This document shows positions 8,056-47,808 of a stretch of 64,000 nt of DNA, one piece after another. The position numbers were made by a program, and so were the translations under genes. Numbering within the stretch: the stretch's first letter is position 1; each line of letters opens with the position of its first letter. The notes under the pieces are model-generated. The model was not told the origin of the DNA and searched no databases. It saw only the letters and a list, made by a program, of their open reading frames with translations. The stretch comes from an uncultured Gammaproteobacteria bacterium (lineage in GTDB: Bacteria > Patescibacteriota > Patescibacteriia > UBA2196), in NCBI GenBank assembly GCA_964435065.1, contig CAYSXS010000001.1, forward strand, positions 20,538 through 84,537, in the 5' to 3' direction.

Positions 8056-8116
8056 AATAAATTACCAAAATTATTAATAAAATATATAGAGGCTTTTTAT
8101 TATGTCGTATAACGCC
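8056..8116. repeat. Right arm of the ~55-bp imperfect inverted repeat. It overlaps the start of GC-rich element copy 1.
   Basis: See 7781-7835. Confidence 0.6.
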
Positions 8117-8366
8117 GACGGATAGGCGAAGCCTAACGAAGGACTTTCCGCAGGATGTAAGCCGAAGGCTTACAGACTAAGGAAAGGACTGAGTTAGGTT
8201 TGGGCCGAGCAGGGTGAGTGCAGGATCTGGGCGAGCCGCTTATCCGTTGTTGTCAGAAGAATCGTGAGCCTCTAGAAGGCCCAAGCCTATCCGTCGGCGT
8301 TGTCAAAAATTGAGGAGCAAGACTGGAACGAAGTGGAAGGCGAGCGAACGATATTTTTGACAACTC
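8104..8366 (+). repeat. GC-rich 261-bp structured element, copy 1. Candidate structured ncRNA or recombination site.
   Basis: Identical except for one mismatch (260/261 positions) to 47546-47808. It contains a nested perfect 16-bp inverted repeat, ACGCCGACGGATAGGC (8112-8127) pairing with GCCTATCCGTCGGCGT (8285-8300). Internal helices include GTAAGCC-gaa-GGCTTAC and TTGGGCC...GGCCCAA. A second 12-bp stem joins GTTGTCAAAAAT (8299-8310) with ATTTTTGACAAC (8353-8364). Confidence 0.85.
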
Positions 8367-8536
8367 GTTATTATCTGGCCTTTTTGAATATAATATACAA
8401 TATTTTGTATGTTATATGAATATTTGATATAAATCAGTTTTTGTTTATAATTTCATCTTAATTCTAGCTAAAATATGACCTTTATGCAAATAAAGTGCCA
8501 TTTACTAGAACGAAGAAATAGTATAAGATTAAGTAT

Positions 8537-9589
8537 ATGAAGTTACTGTTTTTTACTAGAAAAATAAATAGAAACGACCCAAAAGCAGGGTTTGTTTCGG
8601 ATTGGGTGGAGAAACTGGCTAATGAGGTTGGTTTTTTATATATTTTGGTTTGGCAAAAGTCTAAAGCAGAGAATTTGCCAAAAAATGTTAAATTGATCGA
8701 ATTGCCAAAGAATAAAATATTAAGACTGTGGATTTTAAAATTTAAGCTTTTTAAATATATTCCTAAGGTTGATGGTGTGTTTACACATATGATGCCTATT
8801 TATCCAATTTTAGCTGGTTTTTTTACAAAGATCTTTAGAAAAAAACTTGTTCATTGGTATATGCATAAGAGTGTAGATTGGAAATTAAAGTTATCTAACT
8901 GGTTTGTTGATGAATATGTTTCAGCTTCTAAAGAAAGTTTTAGGTTAAAAACTAAAAAACCAGTCAATATATTTGGTCACGGGATAAATATTAATAAGTT
9001 TAATTTTTTAAATAAACAAGTTGAGAATGAAAATTTTAATATTCTAAGTGTAGGAAGAATAAGTCCAACTAAGAATATTGATACTTTGATTAAAATTGCA
9101 GAGCAAATTCAATTGAATAACCCAGAGTTTAGAGATAAATATATTTTTCAAATAGTTGGTGGCCCAGGGTTAGTATCTCAACAGAAATATTATTTAGATC
9201 TAATAGAAGAAGTTAAAGAAAAAGATTTAAATAATGTTGTTGATTTTATCGGTCCTTTACCTCAAGAAGAAATTTTAGAGTATTACAAAAATTGTGATTT
9301 GTTTATTAATCTATCAGATACAGGTTCAATAGATAAGGTTGTTTTAGAAGCTATGGTGAGTAATAAATTGGTTTTAACTTCAAACGAGGCGTTTAAAAAG
9401 ATTCTTCCTTCAGAACTGTTTTGTGAATCTAAAGATGTAGAATATTTGATTGATAAGATAAAAGAAATGTATTCCATACCAGAAGAGAAGAAAAAAGAAT
9501 TACAACAGCGATTAAAATATGAAGTAATTACTAATCATAATTTAGATAACTTAGTAAAAAAAATAGTGAAACTATATGAAAAAAATTGA
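8537..9589 (+). CDS. GT-B fold glycosyltransferase (GT4-like)
   Basis: C-terminal FINLSDTGSIDKVVLEAMVSNKLVLTSNEAFKKIL. It is the first gene of a ~22-kb co-directional gene run. Confidence 0.6.
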   Translation: MKLLFFTRKINRNDPKAGFVSDWVEKLANEVGFLYILVWQKSKAENLPKNVKLIELPKNKILRLWILKFKLFKYIPKVDGVFTHMMPIYPILAGFFTKIFRKKLVHWYMHKSVDWKLKLSNWFVDEYVSASKESFRLKTKKPVNIFGHGININKFNFLNKQVENENFNILSVGRISPTKNIDTLIKIAEQIQLNNPEFRDKYIFQIVGGPGLVSQQKYYLDLIEEVKEKDLNNVVDFIGPLPQEEILEYYKNCDLFINLSDTGSIDKVVLEAMVSNKLVLTSNEAFKKILPSELFCESKDVEYLIDKIKEMYSIPEEKKKELQQRLKYEVITNHNLDNLVKKIVKLYEKN

Positions 9590-10118
9590 TTTAGGATGTG
9601 GTAATGCAAAACGTGATAAAGAAAGTATTGGGGTTGATGCGGTAAAACTACCTGGAGTTGATTTTGTTTGTGATATTGATAAGGAAAAATTACCATTTGA
9701 GGACAATGAAATTGATGAAGTTTATTCAAGACATCTTTTTGAACATCTTGAGAATTTTTTCTTTGTTATGAAAGAGGTTCATCGTGTTTTAAAGCCTGAA
9801 GGGCAATTAGTTCTAAAAGTGCCATATTTTGCAGCACCAACTTCATATTCAGATCCAACACATAAAAGATTTTTTGGTATTTACAGTTTTCAATGTTTTG
9901 ATCCAACAAGTGGAAAATATAGTTATCGTGAAGTAGAAAACACAAAGTTTGAATTAATCTCTGTAAGATATTCGTTTCACTATGGATTTTTATCTAAGTT
10001 TTTTGAGAAGCTTTTTAATAAGAGTAAGGGTGTTCAAGCTAAGTATGAAAGGTATTTGTGCTATTTCATTCCTGCTTACGATTTAAAATTTATTCTAAAA
10101 CCAATCAAAGATGTTTAA
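9576..10118 (+). CDS. Class I SAM-dependent methyltransferase
   Basis: Motif I DLGCGNAKRDKESIGVDAV, plus the acidic D/E loop. Confidence 0.75.
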   Translation: MKKIDLGCGNAKRDKESIGVDAVKLPGVDFVCDIDKEKLPFEDNEIDEVYSRHLFEHLENFFFVMKEVHRVLKPEGQLVLKVPYFAAPTSYSDPTHKRFFGIYSFQCFDPTSGKYSYREVENTKFELISVRYSFHYGFLSKFFEKLFNKSKGVQAKYERYLCYFIPAYDLKFILKPIKDV

Positions 10119-10989
10119 AAGAAAAGAACTAATCAAAAGAGAACTGTTTTACTTTCGTAAAAGTCTTTTAGAATACAAAAGATTTTGGGCATATGTTTAT
10201 TATAAATATATATTTTCTAAAAAAATTTTAAAACAAGATAAAGTTTTAGAAAAGCCTGTTAATAATCCAAATTTATCTGTTCATGTATTAACTTGTCATT
10301 GGGATTTCAAAATGTTTTTTTGGTCTTTATCCAGTTATTATAAATCATTTGAAACAATAGGACAGTTATTTATTCATAATGATGGCACACTAAGCGTAAA
10401 AGAAGTTGATTTAATAAAAAAGTTTTTCCCAAGTTCTAAAATAATAGATGCTAGGACTTTTGACAAAGAGTTTTCTTTTAAATTAGACCAATATCCAGTT
10501 TTTAGAGATATACGTGCAAAGAATTTTGATTTTTTCTCTTTTAAAAAGATCATAGATCCATTTTTGGCTTCAGATAAAGATATGTGCCTTATTTTTGATA
10601 CTGATATTTTGTGGTTTAAAAAACCAACTGAATTAGAAGAACAAATACAAAATGGCTGTGAAAAATCTTTCATGCAGAAAAACAATAGTTATAACGATGC
10701 AGAGATTGATAAAAAATTAACTAAGTTTAATGCCGGCATTATGCTTTATGCTAGAAAGAATTTTGATACACAAATATTAACAGATTTTTTTAAGGGTCTA
10801 GATCAGAGTAATAAGGATGATTTACATTTTGCTGATCAGACAGGACATGTAAAATGTTTAAAGAACCTAGAGGCGCTACCAGAAGATAGATATATAATTA
10901 GAGGTGATGTTAATGAAAATATAGTAGCAAAACACTATACTGCTCCCAGAAGACCTTTGTTTTATATAGATGGTATTAGGAAGTTATAA
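10111..10989 (+). CDS. Putative GT-A fold nucleotide-diphospho-sugar transferase (GT8-like)
   Basis: DxD motif CLIFDTDILWF together with a NAGIMLY motif reminiscent of GT8 NxGVMLxN. Confidence 0.4.
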   Translation: MFKRKELIKRELFYFRKSLLEYKRFWAYVYYKYIFSKKILKQDKVLEKPVNNPNLSVHVLTCHWDFKMFFWSLSSYYKSFETIGQLFIHNDGTLSVKEVDLIKKFFPSSKIIDARTFDKEFSFKLDQYPVFRDIRAKNFDFFSFKKIIDPFLASDKDMCLIFDTDILWFKKPTELEEQIQNGCEKSFMQKNNSYNDAEIDKKLTKFNAGIMLYARKNFDTQILTDFFKGLDQSNKDDLHFADQTGHVKCLKNLEALPEDRYIIRGDVNENIVAKHYTAPRRPLFYIDGIRKL

Positions 10990-12031
10990 AAATTATATGA
11001 AAATATGTTTTTTTGGTAATTACATTTCAGATTATTCCAGAGTAAAAGTTTTGCGTAAAGGTTTTCAGCAAAATGATGTTGAGATTTTTGAATGCCATAC
11101 TAGAAAAACAGGTTTAAAGAAATATTTAGATTTATATAACCAACACAAAAAGATTAGAAATAAGTATGATGTTATCTTAGTTATGATGGGAGGACAAACA
11201 TTGGTTTGGTTTGCAAAGCTATTAACAAAAAAGAAATTAATTTTTGATGCTTTTACTTCTTTATATTTAACAAACATTGAAGATAGGAAAACATGCACAC
11301 CTGAAAGTTTCAAGGCTAAATATTATGCTTGGTTAGATAAAGCTTCTTGTAAAAAGGCAGATAAGGTTTTGTTAGATACTGATGCACAGATACAATATTT
11401 TATTGATAAATATAAGTTAGATAAAGATAAATTTATACGAGTTTTTGTTAGTTCAGACAATGAATGTAATTTAGAAAAAGAAAAGAATAATAAGTTTATT
11501 ATTCATTGGCATGGATATATTGTCCCGCTTTATAGTTTAGAAACAGTTATTAAATCAGCAAAAATATTAGAGAAATATGAAGATATTGAATTTCAGATAG
11601 TGACTCGTTTTAATAGTAAGTATGAGAAAATAAAAGAACTAACAGAAAAGTTAGAATTAAAGAATATTAAATTCTACCCAGAAACAGATTACGAAGGAGT
11701 AGCTAAATTTGTTAATAAAGCAGATGTTTGTTTAGGAATATTTGGGAACAACAAGAAAGCACAAGTTGTAATTCCTAACAAGGTTTACGAAGCAATAATT
11801 TGTGCTAAACCAGTTATTACTGCAAATCACAAAGTTATAGATGAGGTATTTACTAATGAAGATAATATTTTAACAGTTTTGCCGGAAGACGAAAAAGATT
11901 TAGCAAATAAAATATTGAAATTGAAAGATAATAGTGATTTAAGGTATAGAATTGGTCAATCAGCCCATACTTTGCATATTAACAACCTTAAACCAAAACA
12001 AATTGTTAAGGAATTAATAACTAAAATTTAG
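10970..12031 (+). CDS. Hypothetical protein, possibly a GT-B-like glycosyltransferase C-terminal domain
   Basis: ...CLGIFGNNKKAQVVIPNKVYEAIICAKPVITANHKVIDEVF resembles a GT-B C-terminal Rossmann domain, but no EX7E motif is present. Confidence 0.3.
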   Translation: MVLGSYKNYMKICFFGNYISDYSRVKVLRKGFQQNDVEIFECHTRKTGLKKYLDLYNQHKKIRNKYDVILVMMGGQTLVWFAKLLTKKKLIFDAFTSLYLTNIEDRKTCTPESFKAKYYAWLDKASCKKADKVLLDTDAQIQYFIDKYKLDKDKFIRVFVSSDNECNLEKEKNNKFIIHWHGYIVPLYSLETVIKSAKILEKYEDIEFQIVTRFNSKYEKIKELTEKLELKNIKFYPETDYEGVAKFVNKADVCLGIFGNNKKAQVVIPNKVYEAIICAKPVITANHKVIDEVFTNEDNILTVLPEDEKDLANKILKLKDNSDLRYRIGQSAHTLHINNLKPKQIVKELITKI

Positions 12032-12034
12032 TTT

Positions 12035-12703
12035 ATGTTTTATTTCTCAGGAACACGAAAACCAGATTATAAGAACTTGAATAAAGATATATATAATAAT
12101 TATTGGAAGGATAGAGGATATATAATGCGTGATAAGTTAATGGAACGAGAGATTGTCTTTTTAGATTGGATTAAACCAAACAGCAAGGTATTAAGCGTAG
12201 GTTGTGGTAATTCTAGATTACTTTATGAGTTACAAAAACAAAAACAATGTGAAGTTTTTGGGATTGATATATCACCAGAAGTTGTAGATGGTTTAAAACA
12301 AAACAATATTCCATCTGAGGTTCAGGATATTACAAAAGAAGATTTTTCTTTATCTAATAATTATGACTATATTGTAATGAGTGAATTATTAGAACATTTG
12401 GTTATGCCAGAGAATTTATTAGAAAAAGTAAGACATAGTGCAAAACATTTAATTTTATCAGTTCCTAATTCTGCATTTTATCGTTATCGTCTAGGTTTAT
12501 TATTTAAAGGAAGGTTTTGTACTCAATGGGCAAAACATCCAGCAGAACACTTAAGATATTGGAGCCATAAAGATTTTTTAGATTGGTTAGAAGCATTAGA
12601 TTTTCAAATTAAAGAATCTAAACCTTCAAATGGATTTTTTTTAAAAGATATTTGGCCAAACATGTTTGGTCACCAAATTTGTTATTTAATAAATAAGAAA
12701 TAA
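12035..12703 (+). CDS. Class I SAM-dependent methyltransferase
   Basis: VLSVGCGNSRLLYEL (motif I) and YDYIVMSELLEHL (motif II/III). Confidence 0.7.
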   Translation: MFYFSGTRKPDYKNLNKDIYNNYWKDRGYIMRDKLMEREIVFLDWIKPNSKVLSVGCGNSRLLYELQKQKQCEVFGIDISPEVVDGLKQNNIPSEVQDITKEDFSLSNNYDYIVMSELLEHLVMPENLLEKVRHSAKHLILSVPNSAFYRYRLGLLFKGRFCTQWAKHPAEHLRYWSHKDFLDWLEALDFQIKESKPSNGFFLKDIWPNMFGHQICYLINKK

Positions 12704-13852
12704 ATGAAAATATTATATATCTCAAATTCAAGAATTCCAACAGAAAAAGCATATGGTATTCAAATAATGAAGACGTGTGAAGCTTTTGGTTTGCAAAATA
12801 AAAAGATAGAGTTGGTTTTACCAACTAGAAAAAATAAGAAGTTTAAGAATATAAGCCCTTTTGATTATTATTCTGTTAAAAATTGTTTTAGAATAAAAAA
12901 AATTAAAACTTGTGATCCTAATTTTTTAATGAAATTACCAAAAGGTATATATATAAAATTTCAAGGATTGTTTTTTATTTTAAGATTATTTTTTTATCTA
13001 TTATTTAAAAAAAATAAGTCTGAGTATATTTTTTATACTCGTGATGAATATTTGTTACCTTTATTGCATAAATTTTCAGATAAAGTTATTTGGGAAGCTC
13101 ACACCTTACCAAAGAACACAGATAGATATTTAAAAAGTTGGCAAAAGTGTTATAAAATAATTACTATTAGCAAAGCCTTAAAAAGCGAGTTGGAGTCTTT
13201 AAATATTAAACAGGAAAAGATGTTTGTTGCTCATGATGGAGTAGACCTAGAGGAGTTTGAGCTTTCTGCTTTTAATTTACAAAAATCAAGAAAAAAATTA
13301 GGTTTACCTTTAGATAAAAAGATTATAATGTACACGGGGCACTTATATGACTGGAAAGGCGTACAGGTTTTAGCTGATTCAACTAATTTTTTATTGGATA
13401 ATCAAATGATAGTTTTTGTTGGTGGAACTCACTCAGATATTAAGATTTTTCAAAAGAAAAACATGCAATTAATTAAAGATAATAAAATTTTACTTTTAGG
13501 GCACAAAAATCCAAAACTAATTCCTGAATATTTACAATCAGCAGACGTGCTTATTTTACCCAATTCAGCCAAAGATAATAAATCAAAATGGACCTCACCA
13601 ATGAAACTTTTTGAATATATGGCTTCTGGAGTACCTATTGTTGCTTCAGGACTGCCAAGCATAAAGGAGGTTTTAAATAAAGATAATTCAATTTTAGTTA
13701 GTCCGGATAGCCCCAGGGACATTTTTGATGGGATTAAAATAGTTTTGGATAATAAGGAATTATCAAATAAGATTAGTAAACAAGCCCTACAAGACGTACA
13801 AGACTATACGTGGAATAAAAGAGCAGAGAAAATCTTAGAATTTATACAGTAA
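12704..13852 (+). CDS. Glycosyltransferase family 4
   Basis: SPMKLFEYMASGVPIVASGLPSIKEVL. Confidence 0.75.
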   Translation: MKILYISNSRIPTEKAYGIQIMKTCEAFGLQNKKIELVLPTRKNKKFKNISPFDYYSVKNCFRIKKIKTCDPNFLMKLPKGIYIKFQGLFFILRLFFYLLFKKNKSEYIFYTRDEYLLPLLHKFSDKVIWEAHTLPKNTDRYLKSWQKCYKIITISKALKSELESLNIKQEKMFVAHDGVDLEEFELSAFNLQKSRKKLGLPLDKKIIMYTGHLYDWKGVQVLADSTNFLLDNQMIVFVGGTHSDIKIFQKKNMQLIKDNKILLLGHKNPKLIPEYLQSADVLILPNSAKDNKSKWTSPMKLFEYMASGVPIVASGLPSIKEVLNKDNSILVSPDSPRDIFDGIKIVLDNKELSNKISKQALQDVQDYTWNKRAEKILEFIQ

Positions 13853-13860
13853 AATAACTT

Positions 13861-15678: not shown

Positions 15679-15681
15679 AGT

Positions 15682-20337: not shown

Positions 20338-20378
20338 AAGTAATTATAGATTGTATATGCACTAAGTATTTATATAAT

Positions 20379-21497: not shown

Positions 21498-21568
21498 TCT
21501 CAAAATAATTATGAGAGAAGATAAAGAAACAAACCTAAAGTATATTAATATTTTATGTTAAAAAAAGG

Positions 21569-21614
21569 AAAACAATCAAGATTTTGTACGGCAGATTTTG
21601 GTGGTGGATAACCA
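21569..21614 (+). promoter_or_regulatory. Conserved ~45-nt upstream element R1, a candidate cis-regulatory site for a methyltransferase gene
   Basis: AAAACAATCAAG...GTACGGCAGATTTTGGTGGTGGATAACCA. A near-identical copy lies at 22512-22556. It contains the inverted repeat TTTGGT-N9-ACCA. Confidence 0.45.
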
Positions 21615-21663
21615 TGGCAGATTTGCAGGCAGTTAAATAAAAACAGATTATAAATAGTGTTTT

Positions 21664-22473: not shown

Positions 22474-22511
22474 TGGAGATTAGTTAATAAATTTTTTATA
22501 TCTAAAAAAAT

Positions 22512-22556
22512 AAACAACCAAGGGTGTATAAGGCAGATTTTGGTGGGGGATAACCA
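22512..22556 (+). promoter_or_regulatory. Conserved upstream element R2, paralogous to R1
   Basis: AAACAACCAAGGGTGTATAAGGCAGATTTTGGTGGGGGATAACCA. Confidence 0.45.
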
Positions 22557-22797
22557 AATAGGATTATTATAAGGTTTTTTAGGAAAAAGGTATAAGGATA
22601 ATGAGTATGCAAAAAACAATGGACAGCAAACAACCAGTAATGTTTTATTGGGAAGAAATAAGCAAAAAGTATTACCAGGTATTTAGAAGTTTTATTAATA
22701 GAAAAAAGAATAGTAATTTAAGGTAATTTAAAATTAATTTTATCAGAATCCGTTTTTAAAGTATTTTTCAAAATCTACAAGAAACTAAAAATTTTAT

Positions 22798-23598: not shown

Positions 23599-23601
23599 TG
23601 C

Positions 23602-24837: not shown

Positions 24838-24852
24838 ACAGAGGAGGAAACA

Positions 24853-30659: not shown

Positions 30660-30667
30660 TTATATCC

Positions 30668-33799: not shown

Positions 33800-33800
33800 G

Positions 33801-35646: not shown

Positions 35647-35672
35647 ATATACTTTATATCATTTTTTGTTAT

Positions 35673-37091: not shown

Positions 37092-37156
37092 GTTTATATT
37101 TTTATTTATCCTAACTGTGGTATAATTGTATCAACTTTGGGTGTGATAGATTTTGG

Positions 37157-37185
37157 TTGACATTTTACTTAACTAAGTATATGAT
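37157..37185 (+). promoter_or_regulatory. Putative sigma70 promoter for brnT
   Basis: TTGACA - 17 nt - TATGAT, about 25 nt upstream of the 37211 start. Confidence 0.45.
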
Positions 37186-37210
37186 GAACATATACATAAT
37201 GATATAATTT

Positions 37211-37516
37211 ATGTTAGATTTATCAAAATTAAATGGATTTGAGTGGAATAATGCGAATGTGGATAAAAATTGGAATAAACACAAGGTTTATTGGAGAGAG
37301 TGTGAAGAAGTTTTTGTGGATTTACCTTTGTTGATTTCTTTAGATAAAAATCATTCACAAATAGAAATGAGATTTCATGCTTTAGGAAAGACGAGTGATA
37401 ATAGAAAATTATTTATAGTTTTTACTATTAGAAATAAGAAAATAAGAATAATTTCGGCTCGGAATCAGAACCGAAAAGAAAAAGAAATATATGACAAAGC
37501 AAAAAAAACAATTTAA
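37211..37516 (+). CDS. brnT: BrnT-family toxin (DUF497 ribonuclease toxin)
   Basis: FEWNNANVDKNWNKHKV...ECEEVF...RFHALGKTSDNRKLFIVFTIRNKKIRIISAR matches the BrnT fold signature. It overlaps the downstream antitoxin. Confidence 0.7.
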   Translation: MLDLSKLNGFEWNNANVDKNWNKHKVYWRECEEVFVDLPLLISLDKNHSQIEMRFHALGKTSDNRKLFIVFTIRNKKIRIISARNQNRKEKEIYDKAKKTI

Positions 37517-37775
37517 AAAAATACCTTTATTTAAAAACGAAAATGAAGAAATAGAATTTTGGGCAAACAACGACTCGACAGATTATATTAATTGGTCCGA
37601 ATCAGTTGTAAATCCAGAACTTCCTAATCTTAAGCTTTCTACAAAAAGTATATCTTTACGTTTACCTGTTCTTCTTTTGGATCGTTTAAAATCTTTAGCT
37701 AATCGTCGTGATGTTCCGTATCAATCCTATATCAAAATAATTTTAGATGAAAAAGTAAAGAATGAATTAAAATAA
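37491..37775 (+). CDS. brnA: BrnA-family antitoxin
   Basis: FKNENEEIEFWANNDSTDYINWSES...PNLKLSTKSISLRLPVLLLDRLKSLANRRDVPYQSYIKIIL matches the BrnA consensus (FWxxHDSTDYxDWS...ISLRLP...A..RDVPYQSLIK). Confidence 0.7.
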   Translation: MTKQKKQFKKIPLFKNENEEIEFWANNDSTDYINWSESVVNPELPNLKLSTKSISLRLPVLLLDRLKSLANRRDVPYQSYIKIILDEKVKNELK

Positions 37776-37777
37776 AT

Positions 37778-40048: not shown

Positions 40049-40049
40049 T

Positions 40050-40460
40050 ATGTCGCAAGTACACTGTGCAATTAAGGCATTAATTAAAAAAGAAGATAAG
40101 TTTTTGATTGTTAATATAAATGTACAGGGAGAAGAATTTTGGGATTTACCTGGTGGTAAAGTTGATTTTGGAGAATCTCCATACGAGACTTTGCACAGAG
40201 AAATAAAGGAAGAGATTGATTTAAAAGCAAAGATTATTAAACCATTAGGTATGTGGTGGTTTTTTAGAAAAGTAGACGGGGATCAAGTTGTTTGTAATAC
40301 TTTTCTTTGTGAACCAGAAGGATATGACGTAGATATATCAAAAAATCCTGATACAGAAAAAATAACAAAATTTAAATGGATAACAAAAGAAGAATTTTTA
40401 TCTGATGAATGTAAAGTAGCCCATAAAAGTTTTAAGGAGTTTATTTCAAAAGTAATTTAA
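40050..40460 (+). CDS. NUDIX hydrolase. The likely start is the ATG at 40050; the track lists a TTG at 40023.
   Basis: Nudix box GGKVDFGESPYETLHREIKEEIDL. A GAGG RBS sits 8 nt upstream of 40050. Confidence 0.75.
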   Translation: MSQVHCAIKALIKKEDKFLIVNINVQGEEFWDLPGGKVDFGESPYETLHREIKEEIDLKAKIIKPLGMWWFFRKVDGDQVVCNTFLCEPEGYDVDISKNPDTEKITKFKWITKEEFLSDECKVAHKSFKEFISKVI

Positions 40461-40465
40461 TACAT

Positions 40466-42682
40466 ATGTTTAATATACAAAACAAATTAATATATTCCAT
40501 AATAATTTTCTTGTTAGTGTTTTTGCCTTTAGGAATAAAGACTGAGGCAAAAGAACAAGAACTTCCTGCTCATCAAGCAGGAGAGCTTCTAGTTAAATTA
40601 AAAACTAGTGAAAAGATTTTTAAATTTAAATTTAGTTCAGATATTGAATTACAAGAATTAATGGATATATATAATTCTCAAGACAGTGTTGAGTATGCAG
40701 AACCAAACTATATCTATCGCGCTAGTTTAGAACCAAAAGATACTTTTTACACTCAACAATTGTATTTATCAAAAATTAAAGCAAATCGTGCTTGGGACAT
40801 TACAACTGGTTCCAGAAGGGTTACAATAGCAATTGTAGATTCTGGTGTTGATTTAGATCATCCAGATTTAAGACAAAATATTTGGTTTAACAATAAAGAA
40901 ACAGTTAATAATAATATAGATGATGATAGGAATGGATATATAGATGATATATATGGTTGGGATTTTGTTGGAGATGATAATGACCCAAATCCTGATACAA
41001 GTGTAGAATACAATAAGACAGGAATAAATCATGGTACAGTAATTTCAGGAATTGCTGCTGCTCAAGGGGGAAACAAAGAAGGAATAGCTGGTATAAGTTG
41101 GTCTAGTAAAATTATGGCACTAAGGGTTTTAGATAGCGAGGGTTATGGAACAACAGACAAGGTTGCTAAAGCTATTGATTATGCAGTTAATAATAAAGCT
41201 GATGTTATAAACCTAAGCTTCGTTGGTACTGGTAAAAGTTTAACTTTAGAAAGAGCAATTAAACGAGCGTATGATGCAGGAGTAATAGTAGTAGCAGCTG
41301 CCGGTAATGAAGTCGCTTCTGGTGTAGATATGGGCAAAGAAGAGAATAAACAATATCCTGTTTGTCATGATGGGCCAAATAGTGAGAATTGGGTGATTGG
41401 AGTAGCTTCAATAGATAATGATGATCATTTAGCTAGCTTTTCAAATTATGGTTCAAGTTGTATTGATTTAGTTACCCCTGGTGTACGTTTGTTTAGTACT
41501 GTGTATCACGATGAATCTAATAGTGATTTCAAAGACTATTATCAACACGGTTGGACAGGTACTTCTGTTTCTGCACCACAAGTAGCAGGAGCGTTTGCTT
41601 TAGTAAAATCATACAAGCCATCTTTTTCTGCTCAACAGATTAAAGATTTGTTTTTAAATAATGCGATAGATATAGATAGCAAGAATCCAACATATAGGAA
41701 TAAGTTAGGTAGTGGTTTAATGAATGTTTATGCAACCATTTCTAAAGCTTTAGGTGAACAACCAGAAGAAGCAGTTAAAAAAGAATTAGTTATCACAGCT
41801 GCTGGACAAGGTGGTGGGCCACATGTAAAAGCTTTTAGAAAAAACTATCTAGAAAATGAATTTTTTGCTTTTGATGCATACTATAGAGGAGGGCTTTCTG
41901 TTGCTTCAGGAGATTTAGATAGAGATGGGGATATAGAGGTTGTGGTTGGTTTGGGAGCAGGAACACATCCATGGTTTAAGATTTTTTCTGAAGAAGGTGA
42001 ATTACAAAGTCAATTCATGGCTTACGGAGAAGGTTTTCGTGGTGGAGTAGAAGTTGCCATAGGTGATGTTGATGGAGATGGTATAAAAGAGATAATTACA
42101 GGGGCTGGTCCTGGAGGAGGTCCACACATTAGAATTTTTTCACATAATGGAGCGTTAAAAAATCATTTCTTTGCTTTTGATAGAAATTTTACAGGTGGAG
42201 TAGAATTAGCAAGCGGAGATGTTAATGGGGATGGTAAAGATGAAATTATTGTAGTTCCAAAATCAAATCGTGAATCAAAGGTTAAAGTATTTAATTTAAA
42301 AGGGGAGTTAATTAGTGAATTTTTAGCTTTTGATTTAGGGGTTAAGAATGGAATACATGTTGCAGCAGGAGATTTAGATAATGACGGAAAAGATGAAATA
42401 ATTATTGGAGCAGGTTATGGCAATAGTCCACAGATAAAAACTTTTGATTTAAATGGTAATAATATAACTGAATTCACATCTTATCACCCTAATTTCCGTG
42501 GTGGTGTGTATGTTGCATCTGGAGATACTGATTCGGATGGGTTTGATGAGATAATAGCAGGTGCTGGTAAAACAGGAGGTCCTCATGTAAGGGTATTTAA
42601 CAAAAATGGGGGATTAGAATTTCATTTCTTTGCGTATAACGAGAACTTTAGAGGTGGAGTTCGTGTGTCTTCAAGTAACTAA
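40466..42682 (+). CDS. Secreted subtilisin-like serine protease (S8) fused to a C-terminal FG-GAP-type repeat beta-propeller
   Basis: Signal peptide present. Catalytic triad motifs AIVDSGVD (Asp), HGTVISGIAAA (His) and GTSVSAPQVAGAFAL (Ser). These are followed by ~7 repeats of ...GGGPHVKAF...FFAFD..FRGGV.VA.GD.DGDG.DEII... Confidence 0.8.
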   Translation: MFNIQNKLIYSIIIFLLVFLPLGIKTEAKEQELPAHQAGELLVKLKTSEKIFKFKFSSDIELQELMDIYNSQDSVEYAEPNYIYRASLEPKDTFYTQQLYLSKIKANRAWDITTGSRRVTIAIVDSGVDLDHPDLRQNIWFNNKETVNNNIDDDRNGYIDDIYGWDFVGDDNDPNPDTSVEYNKTGINHGTVISGIAAAQGGNKEGIAGISWSSKIMALRVLDSEGYGTTDKVAKAIDYAVNNKADVINLSFVGTGKSLTLERAIKRAYDAGVIVVAAAGNEVASGVDMGKEENKQYPVCHDGPNSENWVIGVASIDNDDHLASFSNYGSSCIDLVTPGVRLFSTVYHDESNSDFKDYYQHGWTGTSVSAPQVAGAFALVKSYKPSFSAQQIKDLFLNNAIDIDSKNPTYRNKLGSGLMNVYATISKALGEQPEEAVKKELVITAAGQGGGPHVKAFRKNYLENEFFAFDAYYRGGLSVASGDLDRDGDIEVVVGLGAGTHPWFKIFSEEGELQSQFMAYGEGFRGGVEVAIGDVDGDGIKEIITGAGPGGGPHIRIFSHNGALKNHFFAFDRNFTGGVELASGDVNGDGKDEIIVVPKSNRESKVKVFNLKGELISEFLAFDLGVKNGIHVAAGDLDNDGKDEIIIGAGYGNSPQIKTFDLNGNNITEFTSYHPNFRGGVYVASGDTDSDGFDEIIAGAGKTGGPHVRVFNKNGGLEFHFFAYNENFRGGVRVSSSN

Positions 42683-42713
42683 AAAATATATATAATTAAA
42701 TAAAAATAAAATT

Positions 42714-43715
42714 ATGAATTATCCTTCAGGCAAAAAAAATATTTTAATTACTGGTGGGGCCGGTTTTATTGGCTCTCATTTATGTGATATCTTAGCTAAA
42801 GACAATCATGTAATTTGTATAGACAATTTTATCACTGGTAGTGAAAAACACATTGACCACTTACTTAAGAATCCTAACTTTGAGTTTATTAAACACGATG
42901 TCTCAGAACCTTTTAAGTTTGAAGATTTTCCTGAGTTAAAACAGTTTAAAGCAGAACTTCAAGGTGTTCAAGAAATTTATCATTTAGCTTGTCCAACTTC
43001 ACCTAAAGAATATAACAGGTTTCCAATTGAAACTTTAATTACAAACTCTCATGGTACGTTAAATACATTGCAGATAGCTAAGAAGTTTGGATCAAAGTTT
43101 TTGCTTCTTTCAACATCAGCAATATATGGAGATCAAGAAGGACATGTAAAAGAAGATAACTGGGGGAGTATTAATCCAATTGGCCCACGTTCTTGCTATA
43201 ACGAAGGTAAAAGGTTTACTGAAAGTTTAACTAGAAGTTTTCACACAAAAGAAGAAGTTGATACTAAAATAGCTAGAGTATTTAATACTTATGGCCCAAG
43301 AATGAAATTAGATGATGGTCGTATGATCCCAGACTTTATTGTGAACTCTCTGAAGAGTGAACCAGTTACTGTTTTTGGTTCAGAAGAAGAACAAGGAAGC
43401 TATTGCTATGTTCAAGATATGGTGGAAGGAATTATTCAATTAATGGCTGCAGATATTAATACACCTGTTAATTTAGGCAGTGATCACGCAGTTAAATTAG
43501 TTGATGTTGCTAAAAAAGTAATTAAAATGACAACCAGTGAATCAAAGATTGAATTTAAAGAATATCCTCCATATACAGCTAAACAAATTATCCCAGATAT
43601 TTCTTTAGCAAAAGAAACCTTTGATTGGTTCCCAATGGTTGGCTTAGATGATGGTTTAGAAAAAACTATTGAAAATATGCGTGTAAACTTAGGGGAATAC
43701 AAGGCAGAGCTTTAA
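42714..43715 (+). CDS. NAD-dependent epimerase/dehydratase, UDP-glucuronate decarboxylase-like (UXS/ArnA C-domain type)
   Basis: ILITGGAGFIGSHLCDIL, followed by a catalytic YNEGKR (YxxxK) motif. The overall pattern matches UXS1-type enzymes. Confidence 0.65.
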   Translation: MNYPSGKKNILITGGAGFIGSHLCDILAKDNHVICIDNFITGSEKHIDHLLKNPNFEFIKHDVSEPFKFEDFPELKQFKAELQGVQEIYHLACPTSPKEYNRFPIETLITNSHGTLNTLQIAKKFGSKFLLLSTSAIYGDQEGHVKEDNWGSINPIGPRSCYNEGKRFTESLTRSFHTKEEVDTKIARVFNTYGPRMKLDDGRMIPDFIVNSLKSEPVTVFGSEEEQGSYCYVQDMVEGIIQLMAADINTPVNLGSDHAVKLVDVAKKVIKMTTSESKIEFKEYPPYTAKQIIPDISLAKETFDWFPMVGLDDGLEKTIENMRVNLGEYKAEL

Positions 43716-43718
43716 ATT

Positions 43719-44378
43719 ATGAATATATACATAATCATACCGGTTTTTAATGAGGAGAATAACATCCAAACAACTTTGGGAGATTTAAAACAGTATGGTT
43801 ATACAATAATAGTAGTTGATGATGGTTCAAAAGATAAGACAGTAGAGATAGTAGAATCAATGAATGTAAAGGTGTTGAAACATAAAGTTAATCGTGGACA
43901 AGGAGCAGCTCTTCAAACAGGTACAACTTATGCAGTTCAAAAAGGAGCAGATATTATTGTACACTTTGATGGTGATGGTCAATTTTTAGCACAAGAGATT
44001 AAAGATTTAATTGAACCAATTAAATTTGAAAATTTAGATATTACTCTTGGATCAAGATTTTTAAAAGAAAATAAAGGAATGCCATGGCTAAAGAAATATA
44101 TTATCCATCCTGTTTCTAGAGTTATTAATACAATTTTTACAAGAATAAAGTTAACAGATGTGCATTGTGGTTTTCGGGCTTTATCAAAACAAGCAGCTGA
44201 GAAAATATATATTACACAAGATGGAATGTCTCATGGAACAGAGATTATTTCCCAAATCAAGAAATATGGGTTAAAATATCGAGAAGTTCCTGTAACGGTT
44301 ATATATAAAGAGTTTGGGCAAGGAATTAAAGGAGGATTTAATATATTAAAAGAATTATTATTAGGTAAATTTGTATAA
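43719..44378 (+). CDS. GT2 glycosyltransferase, soluble catalytic domain of the DPM1/Ppm1 type
   Basis: IIIPVFNEENNIQTTLGDL...IIVVDDGSKDKT...FDGDGQF. It has no TM helix, and the next gene is a small membrane protein. Confidence 0.7.
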   Translation: MNIYIIIPVFNEENNIQTTLGDLKQYGYTIIVVDDGSKDKTVEIVESMNVKVLKHKVNRGQGAALQTGTTYAVQKGADIIVHFDGDGQFLAQEIKDLIEPIKFENLDITLGSRFLKENKGMPWLKKYIIHPVSRVINTIFTRIKLTDVHCGFRALSKQAAEKIYITQDGMSHGTEIISQIKKYGLKYREVPVTVIYKEFGQGIKGGFNILKELLLGKFV

Positions 44379-44700
44379 ACATATGTTAATTCAAATCCTT
44401 TTATCAATATTTATACTTTTTGCAATTATTAGATTAATTGTGAAATTTAAAAAAACTGATGCTAAAGCATCAGGTTCATTATGGTTATTGTTTTGGATAA
44501 TAACTGTTGTAGCTGTTTGGGTACCAGATTTTTTAACTCAAGTAGCTAATCTGGTTGGTATTGGTCGTGGTGCAGATTTAGTTTTGTATGTTAGTGTTGT
44601 CGTTGTTTTTTATTTAATTTTCAAAATATATGTTAGATTAGAAAAGATAGAAAGGAATATTACTAAAGTAGTAAGAAAAGATAGTCTTAAAGAAGATTAG
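44371..44700 (+). CDS. Small membrane protein (DUF2304-like), a probable membrane partner of the upstream GT2
   Basis: 109 aa with 3 TM helices. It overlaps the upstream GT2 by 8 nt. Confidence 0.45.
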   Translation: MYKHMLIQILLSIFILFAIIRLIVKFKKTDAKASGSLWLLFWIITVVAVWVPDFLTQVANLVGIGRGADLVLYVSVVVVFYLIFKIYVRLEKIERNITKVVRKDSLKED

Positions 44701-44703
44701 GAT

Positions 44704-45735
44704 ATGGTATACATTGTAATTTTAACTTGGAATGGAATCAAATATTTACCCAAATTGTTTACAAGTTTGGGTAATTTAGTTTTTGATGAAAATAAGTTGA
44801 AAATAGTTGTTATTGATTCAGGATCAACAGATGGGAGTAGAGAATATTTGGAGGATTTAGATAATATACATTTAATAAAATTAGATAAGAATATCGGGTT
44901 TGTTAAGGGTAATAATTTGGGAATGCAATATGCTTTGGATAATAAAGCAGAATATGTTGTGTTATTAAACCAAGACATAGAAGTTAAAGAAGATTTTTTA
45001 GATTATTTAGTAAATACAGCAGAAAGCGATAAAAAGATTGGTATAGTACAGCCCTTAATGATGTATTATGAAAATAGAGAAGAAATTAATTCTAAGGGTA
45101 ATCTTTTACACTATCTAGGATATGGATATTGTGAAGGTAACCATGAAAAAGTTACAAATAACAAACAAACAAAAGAAATTGAATATGCTTCTGCTGCCGC
45201 AGTGATATATAAGGCAAAGATGTTAAAAGAAATAGGGTTATTTGATGAAAATATTTTTGCTTATCATGAAGATAGTGAAATTTGTTTAAGGGCTAAATTA
45301 AGAGGATACAAAATATATTTAGAACCTAAATCTATTGTTTATCATGATTATTCTTTCCCAACAGGAAAGAATAAAGAAAGATACTTTTGGATGGAAAAGA
45401 ATAGACTATACATAATCCTTAAATTCTATAAACTAAAAACAATCTTTTTGATTTTGCCGATGATATGGTTTATGGATTTAGGACAGATATATTTTGCAAT
45501 TACTAAAAGATATTTTTATCAATGGTTAAGATCAAGGTTTTGGTTTGTTTTTAATTTAAACAGTTTTTTAAAAGCTAGAAGAGACATACAAAAGAATAGA
45601 CAAATTTCTGATAAAGAATTAACTAAGAATTTCACTAGTGAAATTCTTTATCAAGAAGTTTCTAATCCTTTATTAGATAAAATTGCTAATCCAATAATGA
45701 AGGTCTATTGGAAAGTAGTTAAAAAATTTGTTTGA
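44704..45735 (+). CDS. Glycosyltransferase family 2
   Basis: VYIVILTWNGIKYLPKLFTSL...IVVIDSGSTDGS, plus the DxD-type motif LNQDIEV. Confidence 0.75.
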   Translation: MVYIVILTWNGIKYLPKLFTSLGNLVFDENKLKIVVIDSGSTDGSREYLEDLDNIHLIKLDKNIGFVKGNNLGMQYALDNKAEYVVLLNQDIEVKEDFLDYLVNTAESDKKIGIVQPLMMYYENREEINSKGNLLHYLGYGYCEGNHEKVTNNKQTKEIEYASAAAVIYKAKMLKEIGLFDENIFAYHEDSEICLRAKLRGYKIYLEPKSIVYHDYSFPTGKNKERYFWMEKNRLYIILKFYKLKTIFLILPMIWFMDLGQIYFAITKRYFYQWLRSRFWFVFNLNSFLKARRDIQKNRQISDKELTKNFTSEILYQEVSNPLLDKIANPIMKVYWKVVKKFV

Positions 45736-45780
45736 AATAAAAAATAGCCGTTGGTCGCAGCTATTTTTTATTTCAAACAA
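45729..45780 (+). terminator. Rho-independent terminator (long A/U-rich stem) at the end of the + operon
   Basis: GTTTGAAATAAAAAATAGC-cgttggtcgca-GCTATTTTTTATTTCAAAC. It overlaps the stop codon of the GT2 gene. Confidence 0.65.
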
Positions 45781-45819
45781 GGTGATATTTAATCAGTTTT
45801 AAAATATTTTTTGAATAAC

Positions 45820-45932
45820 GTATGTCTGTATCTGAAGTTTTTTGCTTTCTTCATTACTATCGAAAGCAAAATTAGTAATTTAAGCGAAGGGCGAGCCGAG
45901 CCCTTAAGCCAGATACACGCCGTTAAGCGACC
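45820..45932 (+). repeat. Copy B of the repeated non-coding element family (5' box GTATGTCTGTATCTGAAGTTT; 3' box CCAGATACACGCCGTTAAGCGACC)
   Basis: Homologous to 7590-7794 and 46905-47022. Internal hairpins are TTTTGCTTTC...GAAAGCAAAA and AAGGGC-gagccga-GCCCTT. Confidence 0.6.
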
Positions 45933-46091
45933 CCAACGGAATGAAATGGAGTGAGAGCACAGCGTGGCCCGAGTTCAAAAAATATTTTTCGTCTTTATTC
46001 ATCAGATAGTCTTTCGTATATTTCTTATAAATTTGATTTTTTCGTTTTGAAAAATGAAAGAGGGGTTAGCGGTGAATTTCATTTTTTAGAA

Positions 46092-46655
46092 TTAATAATA
46101 TTTCTCTATTCCTCCAAAACCTATTAGTTTGTTTTCTCTTGTTTTGTTGATGAAGTTTTTTAGCCTTTTTTTGAATTCTTCTGGATGCTTTTGTACTCTA
46201 TGAATATAGGCAATACGAATTCTTTTGTATGTATCAGAAAATGTATTGTAATTTTTCCATGCGATTTTATCCTCCTTTACAGCATCAATGATGTCTTTTG
46301 GAAAAACAAACTTTTCTGAGGCAATTTTCTTTGCTTTGTCCAATATTAGGGGATGAATCATGTCATGTTTTAAAAGCCATTTTATTCTTTCTTTGTTTTG
46401 CTGAGAATAAGTGCTTTTGGGATTTCTTGGAGAAAAACGTTGAACACTACTCTCTTCATCAAAAGATTTAATCGTGCTATCGATCCAACCAAAACATAAT
46501 GACTCCTCTACGGCATCGTTGTATACAATTCTTATTTTACCTGAAGATTTTTTCGGATACATCAACCAGACATCTTTTTCTTTATCAAAATTCTTTTCCA
46601 GCCATTTACGCCAGTCTTTCCTATTTGTCACATAGAGTGTTTTTTCTATATTCAT
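46092..46655 (-). CDS. YdeI/OmpD-associated family protein (bacteriocin-protection-like, DUF1801-related)
   Basis: ...DVWLMYPKKSSGKIRIVYNDAVEESLCFGWIDSTIKSFDEESSVQRFSPRNPKSTYSQQNKERIKWL... Confidence 0.6.
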   Translation of the reverse strand: MNIEKTLYVTNRKDWRKWLEKNFDKEKDVWLMYPKKSSGKIRIVYNDAVEESLCFGWIDSTIKSFDEESSVQRFSPRNPKSTYSQQNKERIKWLLKHDMIHPLILDKAKKIASEKFVFPKDIIDAVKEDKIAWKNYNTFSDTYKRIRIAYIHRVQKHPEEFKKRLKNFINKTRENKLIGFGGIEKYY

Positions 46656-46699
46656 TTTATTTATTATAAATTAATGAATGATAATTTTAAATATTTTCA

Positions 46700-46924
46700 T
46701 GATCCATTTATTTGAGTCGCAAAATTATTTAAAATCTGTGCTAACTCAACAGGTTTACCAAGCATGGGAAAATGCCTAGAATCGATATCATTTTTTTTGA
46801 CTTGAAGATTCTTAATCATATTATCCTGAATTTTCTCACTAAATGCCTTATTTTTTTTCAGGCGAATATATAGGGAATTAACAGGGATGTCTTTTGTGTT
46901 TAATGTATGCGTACATCTGAAGTT
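46700..46924 (-). pseudogene. C-terminal fragment of an alpha/beta-hydrolase fold gene whose 5' part is missing
   Basis: The minus-strand translation ...DIPVNSLYIRLKKNKAFSEKIQDNMIKNLQVKKNDIDSRHFPMLGKPVELAQILNNFATQINGS* carries the catalytic-His 'HFPML' C-terminal signature of alpha/beta hydrolases. The frame is open to ~46924 and then terminates exactly inside repeat copy C. No start or N-terminal domain is present. Confidence 0.5.
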
Positions 46925-47022
46925 TCAGCTCCTTCTTTGTAGCTTATCAATATATTAACAGATAAAAAAGATACAAAGAAGGAGCTGAAATTTGGATGAA
47001 CATTTGGCGTAGTTGTACGAAG
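46905..47022 (+). repeat. Copy C of the repeated non-coding element family (5' box GTATGCGTACATCTGAAGTTT; 3' box CATTTGGCGTAGTTGTACGAAG)
   Basis: Perfect 17-bp hairpin TCAGCTCCTTCTTTGTA...TACAAAGAAGGAGCTGA. It abuts the truncated hydrolase gene. Confidence 0.6.
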
Positions 47023-47195
47023 TTCTGTTTTTTAGCTACGACTGCAAGGAGTAGCTATTTGGGCGATAAGCCCAAATAAAGAAATATTTTTTGTTATTTT
47101 TAGCTTATTGACTTATATTTTTACCTATGCTTATATTATGTAATAAAGACTAAACCAATAATTAAAATTTTACAAATAAGGTAGGAGAAATAGTT

Positions 47196-47441
47196 ATGAA
47201 AGATTTAATTAACTTTGGAGACAAGCTTCCTAGGGTCGGTCAGATTATCAATTTGTTTCGTCCTCCCGGAGCTTCCATAGTTTCATGTGAAGATACGAAG
47301 GGTTGTAGCAGTGAAAAGAGATGGGAAGTTGACAATCTTGTTGCGGATGGAGATTTTTGGTTTCGTTGCACAAAATGTAACAGATTAATCTCTCTTCATG
47401 CTAACGTGAAAGAAAAATATAATTGGAAATCGTGTGATTAA
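47196..47441 (+). CDS. Small (81 aa) Cys-rich, zinc-ribbon-like protein of unknown function
   Basis: Strong RBS AGGAGA 8 nt upstream. It has a C-x5-C ... C-x2-C arrangement (SCEDTKGC / CTKC) and is GC-richer than the surrounding genes. Confidence 0.5.
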   Translation: MKDLINFGDKLPRVGQIINLFRPPGASIVSCEDTKGCSSEKRWEVDNLVADGDFWFRCTKCNRLISLHANVKEKYNWKSCD

Positions 47442-47545
47442 GCGACACGAAGAAATAAACTTGTATCATGGCCCAGCAAGTATAAAATATGGGTCTTTTT
47501 CATTTGCCAGAAAAATAACAAAAAATATTTCTTAAAAAATGGAAT

Positions 47546-47808
47546 TTCGTACAACGCCGACGGATAGGCGAAGCCTAACGAAGGACTTTCCGCAGGATGT
47601 AAGCCGAAGGCTTACAGACTAAGGAAAGGACTGAGTTAGGTTTGGGCCGAGCAGGGTGAGTGCAGGATCTGGGCGAGCCGCTTATCCGTTGTTGTCAGAA
47701 GAATCGTGAGCCTCTAGAAGGCCCAAGCCTATCCGTCGGCGTTGTCAAAAATTGAGGAGCAAGACTGGAACGAAGTGGAAGGCGAGCGAACGATATTTTT
47801 GACAACTG
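47546..47808 (+). repeat. GC-rich 261-bp structured element, copy 2
   Basis: 260/261 nt identical to 8104-8366, with the same orientation and the same nested inverted repeats. It ends 108 bp upstream of the tyrosine recombinase gene. Confidence 0.85.

Follow-up and report, generated by a model that had tools for sequence, protein, structure and literature searches.

Why would a glycosylation locus carry the same stretch of non-coding, strongly self-complementary DNA twice, as direct repeats 39.4 kb apart? The question is raised by 64,000 nucleotides of contig CAYSXS010000001.1 (the window), from an uncultured bacterium that GTDB places in the Patescibacteriota, in which one copy of a GC-rich repeat (copy A) precedes a glycosyltransferase operon and the other (copy B) precedes the gene of a XerA-type tyrosine recombinase. 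A first-pass annotation, made from the letters alone, had read the repeat as either a structured RNA or a recombination site. We find that it is a genuine, previously undescribed family of non-coding elements; the literature that we searched describes no such element. The reading we prefer, at a probability of roughly 45%, is that each repeat is a gene-less integrative element that exploits the Xer recombinase of its host and folds as a single strand, like the attachment site (attP) of CTXphi. Of the two early suggestions the recombination site comes closest, with the repeat sitting at the crossover point of a dif-like site beside a XerA-type gene, and the riboregulator or ribozyme is without direct support, the covariation being not significant.

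Aligned without gaps, the two copies differ between 8105/47547 and 8365/47807 at one base only, T8110 in copy A and C47552 in copy B (alignment and a script), which bears out the 260 of 261 identical bases first reported; over the limits drawn at that time, 8104-8366 and 47546-47808, the first base (G/T) and the last (C/G) differ as well. When the limits of the core are set by comparing filled with empty sites, as described below, the two cores are 251/251 identical and the adjoining flanks about 50% identical. The contrast with the surrounding DNA of about 30% GC also holds, with a GC content of 0.53-0.57 within the elements against 0.22-0.36 in the remaining window. So does the statement that neither copy contains an open reading frame (ORF): the frames inside the element are all at most 39 aa long and are not conserved, being broken by 1-nt indels between species, and an exact protein look-up finds none of these small ORFs on record.

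Two identical copies could in principle be an assembly or scaffolding duplication, the more so as short-read assemblies fragment at the repeat, and most of the contigs that we recovered do stop inside it, as would be expected of a true repeat that exceeds the assembler's k. The junctions say otherwise. Exact-protein look-ups of the flanking genes, reaching more than 10 assemblies, recover each of the four flank-element junctions in several independent assemblies. Among the contigs and loci compared (labeled L0xx throughout), L011 covers copy A entirely with both flanks at 100% identity, and L005 begins at base 7 of the element, continues to the end of copy B and goes on into the right flank of that copy. 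Furthermore, the single-base variants of A and B each stay linked to their own left flank. The duplication, which the first-pass annotation had named among the findings that would count against it, is refuted by these observations, and we give it practically no chance.

What the core is can be seen from DNA that lacks it. The window flanks are contiguous and element-free in L030, L026/L028 and L048: the empty site in L030 reads ATTTCCGATAAC followed directly by TCGTTTATATGCGAAAATAATTCGTATAATGACC..., and the window reads AATTTCGTACAAC, then the 251 nt, then TGGTTTATATATGAAAACAATTCGTATAATGACC.... With the cores removed, the flanks of copies A and B (winA and winB in the alignments) and of copy sp2_c1, from a second species introduced below, are colinear with the uninterrupted sequence of L030, L026/L028 and L048, and the alignment stays colinear through a promoter-like TTGTAT-17-TATAAT box to the start codon. 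Therefore, the GC-rich core is a clean insertion into a pre-existing AT-rich module; the precision of the insertion, its boundaries and the empty sites are all read directly from these alignments. The target is an imperfect palindrome of about 27 bp with the consensus ATTTCRTATAA-CTNGT-TTATATSYGAA, in which inverted arms of about 11 bp enclose a short spacer, and the element is inserted exactly at the boundary between left arm and spacer. The left arm at copy A aligns with the left arms of L026 and L034 (type 'TAWTATGTCG..TAAC'), and that at copy B is colinear with ATTTCCGATAAC in L030, ATTTCACATAAC in L028 and ATTTCATATAAC in L048.

The target has a telling neighbor. In relatives without the element, the palindrome is intact about 100-190 bp upstream of a XerA-type recombinase gene, and in the window the recombinase gene starts 108 bp downstream of copy B; an Xer-type gene adjoins the copy in L034 as well. 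The window's recombinase matches Pfam Phage_integrase (E = 6e-44) and reaches 237 bits with the NCBIfam model recomb_XerA_Arch against an equivalog cutoff of 220. Its family is about 70% conserved across thousands of Patescibacteria proteins and is therefore the resident Xer-type enzyme of the lineage, not a phage integrase. The palindrome itself has the architecture of a tyrosine-recombinase site, and it is dif-like also in its similarity to the dif of P. abyssi, which has been used experimentally with XerA as ATTGGATATAA-TCGGCC-TTATATCTAAA (PMC2958812). Strains of another species give a view of the same position: L026/L027 and L028 encode identical recombinase proteins, and their DNA is 100% identical from the TAAC/TAGTG boundary rightwards through xer and unrelated leftwards. 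By this comparison, the point at which the element inserts is a natural crossover, or recombination breakpoint, between these strains. The breakpoint lies at 715-765 in L026 and at 1110-1160 in L028, with different genes upstream.

A dif-like site would also be rebuilt after insertion. The 3' end of the element, ATTTTTGACAA, would serve as a substitute left arm, so that a full site is restored at the right junction. A degenerate pattern made from the empty sites matches the window at 47795-47816 (1 mismatch), at 8353-8374 (3 mismatches) and at one other place, where 0.5 matches are expected by chance. At the left junction the spacer is GC-rich and the right-arm match is weak (3.5 bits by weight matrix), and it is the best match and lies at the expected place. 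The motif TTCGTATAAY shows no enrichment in the window (18 matches where 13.4 are expected). The terminus of the element at its 3' side is ATTTTTGACAAC, and a pentanucleotide ACAAC/AYAAC occurs both directly left of the element and at this end. The promoter-like box downstream of the element is conserved in filled and empty sites alike. Overlapping this promoter-like region upstream of xer, at 47827-47874, a box TCGTATAAT occurs twice in direct and once in inverted orientation (ATTCGTATA...TATACGAAT); the box is also present in L030, is not enriched window-wide, and may be an operator. Coordinates are collected in Table 1.

Table 1. Coordinates of the element copies, their target sites, internal parts and adjoining genes in the window.
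Feature	Position	Strand	Description and basis
Element copy A	8114..8364	+	251-bp GC-rich non-coding core, GCCGACGG...TTTTTGACAAC; filled/empty comparison
Element copy B	47556..47806	+	251-bp core; alignment with copy A and filled/empty comparison
Left arm of site at copy A	8102..8113	+	ATGTCGTATAA+C; holds the only A/B difference, T8110
Left arm of site at copy B	47544..47555	+	ATTTCGTACAA+C
Re-created dif-like site (candidate), right junction of copy A	8353..8379	+	element-borne ATTTTTGACAA, spacer CTCGT, chromosomal right arm
Re-created dif-like site (candidate), right junction of copy B	47795..47821	+	ATTTTTGACAA-CTGGT-TTATATATGAA
Promoter-like box downstream of copy A	8405..8433	+	TTGTAT-17-TATAAA; flank alignment
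Promoter-like box downstream of copy B	47846..47874	+	TTGTAC-17-TATAAT; flank alignment
Internal 26-nt splint	8285..8310 (copy B 47727-47752)	+	GCCTATCCGTCGGCGTTGTCAAAAAT; sequence, folds, pattern search
Degenerate direct copy of the splint	8238..8262	+	GCTTATCCGTTGTTGTCAGAAGAAT; alternative partner for both end segments; folds
P2	8131..8199	+	29-bp rod with three tandem GA/GA internal loops and a GAA loop; fold
V1 variable segment	8215..8231	+	peripheral hairpin in P3; 6/16 identical to species 2
V2 variable segment	8318..8341	+	middle of the purine-rich 40-nt P4 loop; 9/23 identical to species 2
XerA-type tyrosine recombinase gene	47916..48749	+	overlaps start of downstream GT4 gene; profile matches
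GT1-family glycosyltransferase gene, first after copy A	8537..9589	+	heads a co-directional glycosylation block of about 22 kb

Now we consider how far the element has spread. Homologues were found by scanning a genome collection with a pattern from the 5' arm, and they occur in two other Patescibacteria, here called species 2 and species 3. An earlier genome scan with a mid-element pattern gave 0 matches, where short-read assemblies that break in the repeat may omit the stretch; two scans of metagenome contigs also gave 0, in a collection without the relevant samples, so that these zeros are not evidence of absence, and contigs of the Joint Genome Institute (JGI) do contain the scanned patterns. 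BLAST against phage and plasmid collections returned no match to the element, and six pattern scans of viral contigs returned just chance 16-mers in GC-rich coding DNA. Species 2 is a metagenome-assembled genome (MAG) labeled Gammaproteobacteria with Patescibacteria-like proteins; its sequence is that of a 134.7-kb JGI contig, which comes from samples that also contain the window organism. On two contigs of this MAG (CAZNIO01; L034 and L038), the named matches to the DUF2000 protein all belong to Patescibacteria lineages and the GC content is 0.34-0.37; the label 'uncultured Gammaproteobacteria', or the bin, is probably wrong.

In species 2, two full copies stand on the same strand at a distance of 630 bp, one on each side of the DUF2000 gene. 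The copy sp2_c1 lies upstream of, and co-directional with, an ftsK-...-recA block; in sp2_c2 the 5' arm is degenerate and 10 nt are deleted. This second copy is a mosaic in another sample (L043), where its interior is c1-like, which shows gene conversion. At a third species-2 locus (L034), the first 75 nt of the element are kept, followed by an insertion sequence (IS) and then the Xer-type gene, and in species 3 (L037) about 88 nt are kept, and the GT4-GT2-SNase-PMT operon that comes next is syntenic with the one downstream of copy B; both loci carry internally deleted decay products of the element. The IS in L034 (3440-4815), between the decayed element and the Xer-type gene, carries an rve-family transposase and a 5-bp duplication (CAATT).

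Quantitative comparison of copy A with sp2_c1 reveals how uneven the conservation is. Over the whole core 218/250 positions are identical, and outside the two variable segments the scaffold reaches 203/211 (96%); the segments themselves fall to 6/16 (V1) and 9/23 (V2), and the AT-rich right flank to 26/46. The recombinase proteins of the two species are 61% identical, and a scaffold at 96% beside recombinases at 61% points to transfer. The earlier suggestion that near-identity reflects mobility or gene conversion is borne out by this pattern together with the L043 mosaic. Upstream of xer, the element is missing in relatives whose recombinases are 77-79% identical (L026-L033), and it is also absent from L048 and L049, which were found via DUF2000. 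An argument from rearrangement in L048 was dropped because this locus is not close to species 2 (recombinases 48% identical, 207-aa neighbors unrelated). Two further relatives found through neighboring proteins (P0121 and P0122) start inside xer and hold no upstream DNA.

The element is also an unusually stable structure. Every helix listed in the first-pass annotation is present: the 16-bp inverted repeat 8112-8127/8285-8300 encloses 157 nt and is perfect (19 bp in copy B), the helices GTAAGCC-GAA-GGCTTAC and TTGGGCC/GGCCCAA lie inside, the 5' arm has an alternative partner GCTTATCCG at 8238-8248, and a 12-bp stem joins 8299-8310 to 8353-8364. As RNA, the + strand folds at -113.5 kcal/mol (z = -7.4) and the - strand at -92.7; as DNA the values are -54.5 and -47.7 kcal/mol. 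In every copy the + strand is the more stable of the two, by 20-34 kcal/mol, and the stability of the fold is far beyond chance. At the center of the design is a 26-nt segment, which we call the splint. When the 3' end of the element is joined to its 5' start, the splint is exactly the reverse complement of the joined sequence. The splint supplies the 3' strand of helix P1 and the 5' strand of helix P4, and P1 and P4 therefore form one continuous duplex, broken only where the flanks enter. A degenerate direct copy of the splint differs from it only in wobble-compatible ways (G-T/G-U); folds of a growing transcript use this copy until about nt 185, and it is 100% conserved in sp2_c1 and has lost 10 nt in sp2_c2. 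The apical stem of P2 has one compensatory U-A/A-U change. The left-flank ACAAC and the terminal ACAAC compete for one internal GTTGT. Taken as possible guides, V1 and V2 find nothing complementary in the window or at the species-2 loci except random 10-mers. A CsrA sponge was considered and rejected, the GGA count being about what the purine-rich composition predicts (a rough hand estimate).

How could these observations fit together? Insertion at a dif-like crossover beside a XerA-type gene, near-identity across species, gene conversion and decayed copies favor a gene-less element that exploits a recombinase. Most likely, the 251-bp element, without a recombinase of its own, would be integrated, and perhaps excised, by the Xer-family recombinase of the host. 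The splint would pair with the joined ends, so that one strand folds and places both ends side by side in a duplex. Once two direct copies are in place, recombination between them, homologous or site-specific, could delete or circularize the glycosylation genes in between. Here, we infer the Xer catalysis, the single-stranded intermediate and the route of transfer. An Xer substrate formed from a hairpin of single-stranded DNA has a precedent in the CTXphi attachment site, which is masked in the integrated double-stranded form; integration proceeds by one pair of strand exchanges and the resulting junction is resolved by replication (PMC9226527).

The likeness to integrative mobile elements exploiting Xer (IMEX) of the CTXphi type goes beyond the fold. 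Both lack a recombinase of their own and sit at the arm/spacer boundary of a dif-like site (intact here as a palindrome in L030, L026/L028 and L048), one that an Xer-family recombinase uses or that adjoins its gene; in both the crossover homology is very short (here ACAAC), a complete site is re-created on one side, and two inverted att copies let one strand fold into a duplex site. The differences are as plain. Known IMEX, whether phages or islands, measure several kb to tens of kb, whereas this element has 251 bp, is gene-free, has no match in phage, plasmid or viral collections, and shows neither phage or island genes nor a transferable form. The host enzyme is a single XerA-type protein instead of XerC/XerD, the sites lie off any GC-skew switch and number several per genome, the element mimics the arms weakly, and no single-stranded or circular form of the element was observed.

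Several results weigh against the recombinase-exploiting element that we prefer. Neither a free circle of the element alone nor a helper element was seen. The scaffold is 96% conserved and V1/V2 about 40%, and therefore selection acts on far more than a 30-bp att site, which fits a functional RNA too; the wobble-compatible substitutions suit both RNA and single-stranded DNA. The family is known from just three species and about five distinct sequences, and all observed insertions could descend from few events. In a position-weight test the element-borne left arm scores just 1.4 bits and the putative right arm 3.5, and arms of 11 bp leave a spacer of 5 nt where 6-8 is usual. GC skew shows no switch at either site, and there are at least two to three such sites per genome, so the palindrome is at most a candidate for the chromosomal dif. 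Taken to its full extent, the proposal would describe a 251-nt DNA parasite of an Xer-family recombinase that is nothing but a self-folding attachment site and its scaffold, that hops between co-occurring species of Patescibacteria into dif-like sites at operon heads, and whose paired copies make the 39-kb surface-glycosylation block a cassette for this very recombinase to excise and re-insert; this larger picture we offer as speculation that is rather unlikely to hold in every part.

We rank second the possibility that the element is a functional structured RNA, either a small RNA in its own right or a long cis-acting leader or upstream transcript of the operons for xer, glycosylation and ftsK (acting, for instance, in processive antitermination, stabilization or as a conformational switch), spread by duplication and horizontal transfer, with its place in the palindrome secondary. 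The fold (z = -7.4, + strand better by 20-34 kcal/mol in all copies) is what such an RNA would need, and outside the variable hairpin all substitutions in paired columns keep the pair, with 2 compensatory and about 10 G-U-compatible changes, the single A/B difference included. The alternative pairing with the conserved internal copy gives a sequential folding path, 5/6 copies are co-directional with the next gene, and the best argument for a sequence-specific function beyond a 30-bp att site is the 96% scaffold beside two free segments. However, the helices are nearly all perfect Watson-Crick and conserved in sequence, unlike those of old RNAs, and most pairs never vary. The covariation analysis that the first-pass annotation had proposed gives no significant signal: 94.9% of cells are paired, 2 pairs are double-changed, and 22/500 shuffles reach the score, the distinct sequences being too few. 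Rfam finds nothing on the element at the gathering threshold and only noise of 15-23 bits at E <= 10, as the annotation's failure to match any known RNA family had led one to expect; in the window RNase P is the sole Rfam match, and a tRNA/tmRNA scan is empty. The conserved promoter-like box is situated downstream of the element, and empty sites have it as well as filled ones; therefore the operon transcript need not include the element. No terminator follows the element, its orientation bias is accounted for by the asymmetric target site, and the closest relatives lack the element at the same loci. A folded DNA strand would also account for the strand bias and the preserved pairs. On balance an RNA function seems unlikely to us, if still the strongest competitor of the recombinase-exploiting element.

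Could the repeat instead be a fixed part of the recombination site? As in cer/psi, some 250 bp of accessory DNA might stand beside a 27-bp core without being mobile, and the recombinase would delete and re-insert DNA between sites, which would turn the 39.4-kb glycosylation block into a cassette that can be cut out to vary the surface glycans. The copies repeat in the same direction, and a complete core stands at the right of each. The recombinase gene is close by and heads glycosylation clusters in relatives too, and L026/L028 exchange their left contexts at the site. Both reciprocal junctions also exist in other samples: L006 (ERZ27316110) joins A-left, element and B-right, and L014 (ERZ27316076), from a strain 1-3% divergent, joins B-left, element and A-right. 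These may be the reciprocal products of A/B recombination (deletion, and circle or tandem junctions) or assembler chimeras; in the L006 sample, exact look-ups gave the recombinase, and of the two genes at the borders of the 39-kb block they gave neither. The junction contigs are, however, short (1.6 and 3.4 kb) and may be assembler paths through the 262-bp repeat or the work of homologous recombination. The full copies in species 2 flank one small gene only, its third copy precedes ftsK, and relatives recombine at the core without accessory DNA. The accessory sequences we know of are protein-binding DNA and not self-complementary GC-rich rods, which also counts against this idea, and we find it doubtful. 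Less probable again is that the repeat is a palindrome-associated transposable element of the IS200/IS605 type, itself non-autonomous. A Y1 HUH transposase encoded elsewhere would move it in single-stranded form, inserting it 3' of AYAAC, and it would end in ACAAC. This reading would account for the shared pentanucleotide, for the lack of terminal inverted repeats and of a clear target duplication, and for a strand-specific fold in which the internal GTTGT can pair with both copies of the cleavage site. Yet AYAAC is abundant in this AT-rich genome and all five or six insertions fall at one position of the ~27-bp palindrome; the window and related loci hold no TnpA/TnpB gene, and Rfam gives no match to an IS605-associated RNA. 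Least probable among these is an invertible switch, as in fimS or the Bacteroides capsule promoters, in which the adjacent tyrosine recombinase flips the 157-bp segment between the 16-19-bp inverted repeats and so switches glycosylation operons. The perfect repeat (19 bp in copy B), the recombinase gene 108 bp away and the surface-glycan operons downstream all invite it. About 20 contigs from more than 10 samples enter the element, however, and all are colinear, so that the inversion raised at first pass was found in none of them. Every match that is long enough to reveal how the interior is oriented runs colinear with its flanks, and the opposite strand gives no match except that of the near-palindromic P2 rod to itself. 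A promoter scan lists no + strand site within the interior, which is GC-rich and self-complementary, and the conserved promoter lies outside the segment.

Three further classes were rejected outright. A miniature inverted-repeat transposable element (MITE) is contradicted by termini, GCCGACGG... and ...TTTTTGACAAC, that are not inverted repeats of each other, and the ACAAC on both sides, which might pass for its target duplication, belongs to the conserved 3' end and to the arm of the target, and neither copy A nor species 2 has it in perfect form. A group I intron has no Intron_gpI match at E <= 10, satisfies the U/G rule in 4/5 copies only by choosing the cut within the ACAAC ambiguity, and on inspection of the sequences does not keep the proposed P1 pairing across copies. 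The attL/attR of an island in a tRNA or small-RNA gene would call for such a gene, and there is no tRNA, tmRNA or Rfam match; the recombinase also lies outside the bracketed segment.

Among known systems, XerS/difSL shares the placing of a conserved imperfect palindrome just upstream of a single xer gene (PMC1914069). The archaeal XerA/dif module is close in other respects: the arms resemble the dif of P. abyssi and the recombinase passes the XerA equivalog cutoff, but archaeal dif sites are not adjacent to xerA (PMC2958812), unlike here. The site in the window differs from both in a spacer one nucleotide shorter and in the presence of similar sites ahead of a glycosyltransferase operon and of ftsK. 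Short dispersed repeats (ERIC, BOX, Correia and Rickettsia palindromic elements, MITEs) are likewise short, non-coding and self-complementary, with near-identical and decayed copies in promoter-proximal intergenic places; in contrast to these, the element lacks terminal inverted repeats, is seen in 2-3 copies per genome, has all of its copies at one 27-bp target, and is far richer in GC than its host. EAR and the HK022 putL/putR leaders offer an RNA-like structure at the head of long polysaccharide blocks, and two similar copies in the case of putL/putR, but here there is no Rfam EAR match, the promoter-like box is downstream of the element, a copy also precedes ftsK-recA, and the closest relatives have the same operons without the element. 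In cer/psi, accessory sequences of about 200-250 bp likewise stand on the left-arm side of an Xer-type core and direct repeats can be resolved; the element, however, is inserted into a pre-existing core instead of being integral to it, and is self-complementary and GC-rich. We also know of no accessory proteins in these bacteria, unlike the case of cer/psi.

The gene context calls for two corrections to the first-pass annotation. It had both copies precede the first gene of a glycosyltransferase operon, which holds for copy A (gene 8537), whereas the gene after copy B (47916) encodes the tyrosine recombinase. It also had the copies bracket most of the glycosylation locus; in fact glycosylation genes flank both copies on both sides, extending beyond them at 882-6015 and 48746-61243. 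Neither the element nor the 64-kb window holds a gene for a transposase, reverse transcriptase, TnpA or TnpB.

Other features of the window are recorded here in their own right. A second GC-rich non-coding island, at 45880-46090, is conserved and common to three Patescibacteria (L030 6130-6310; L038 about 960-880, - strand) and adjoins copy c2 in species 2; it reads ...CCAGATAYACG..GCGACCCGACGACTG.AAGGAGGAGAGCGCAGCG..., followed by a terminator-like AAAATGAAA...TTTCATTTT hairpin, and has no Rfam match at E <= 1. Within the glycosylation block lies a BrnT-toxin/CopG-antitoxin pair (37211-37775, from the L013 gene table). The copies of a 72-nt direct repeat (21543-21614 and 22485-22556, 74% identical, ending in GGCAGATTTTGGTGGKGGATAACCA) stand about 50-240 nt upstream of methyltransferase genes 21664 and 22798 and may be a shared leader. 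A gapless palindrome at 46920-46993, with 37-nt arms that are 81% complementary, separates an OmdA-like gene from an 81-aa zinc-ribbon-like ORF. Four to five tandem 27-nt repeats at 58827-58961, in ORF 58767-59207, encode ...KDDLKGFATK... units, and the bacterial RNase P RNA is of class A, at 56841-57214 on the + strand (107 bits against a gathering score of 100).

What would the element mean for these bacteria? If an RNA function should prove right, it would be a new class of structured RNA of about 250 nt with a very highly conserved scaffold. If instead the recombinase-exploiting element is real, it would be smaller than any other element known to exploit the Xer recombinase of its host and would be the first of this kind in the Candidate Phyla Radiation, and a bare folded attachment site would suffice for persistence and for crossing between species. 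For the single XerA-type recombinase that Patescibacteria have, the palindrome is a candidate site of recombination, adjoining the enzyme's own gene, and the natural crossover between L026 and L028 makes the Xer biology of these uncultured bacteria testable in vitro. The element would also suggest a mechanism for the well-known strain-level variability of glycosylation islands, by gain and loss between directly repeated sites.

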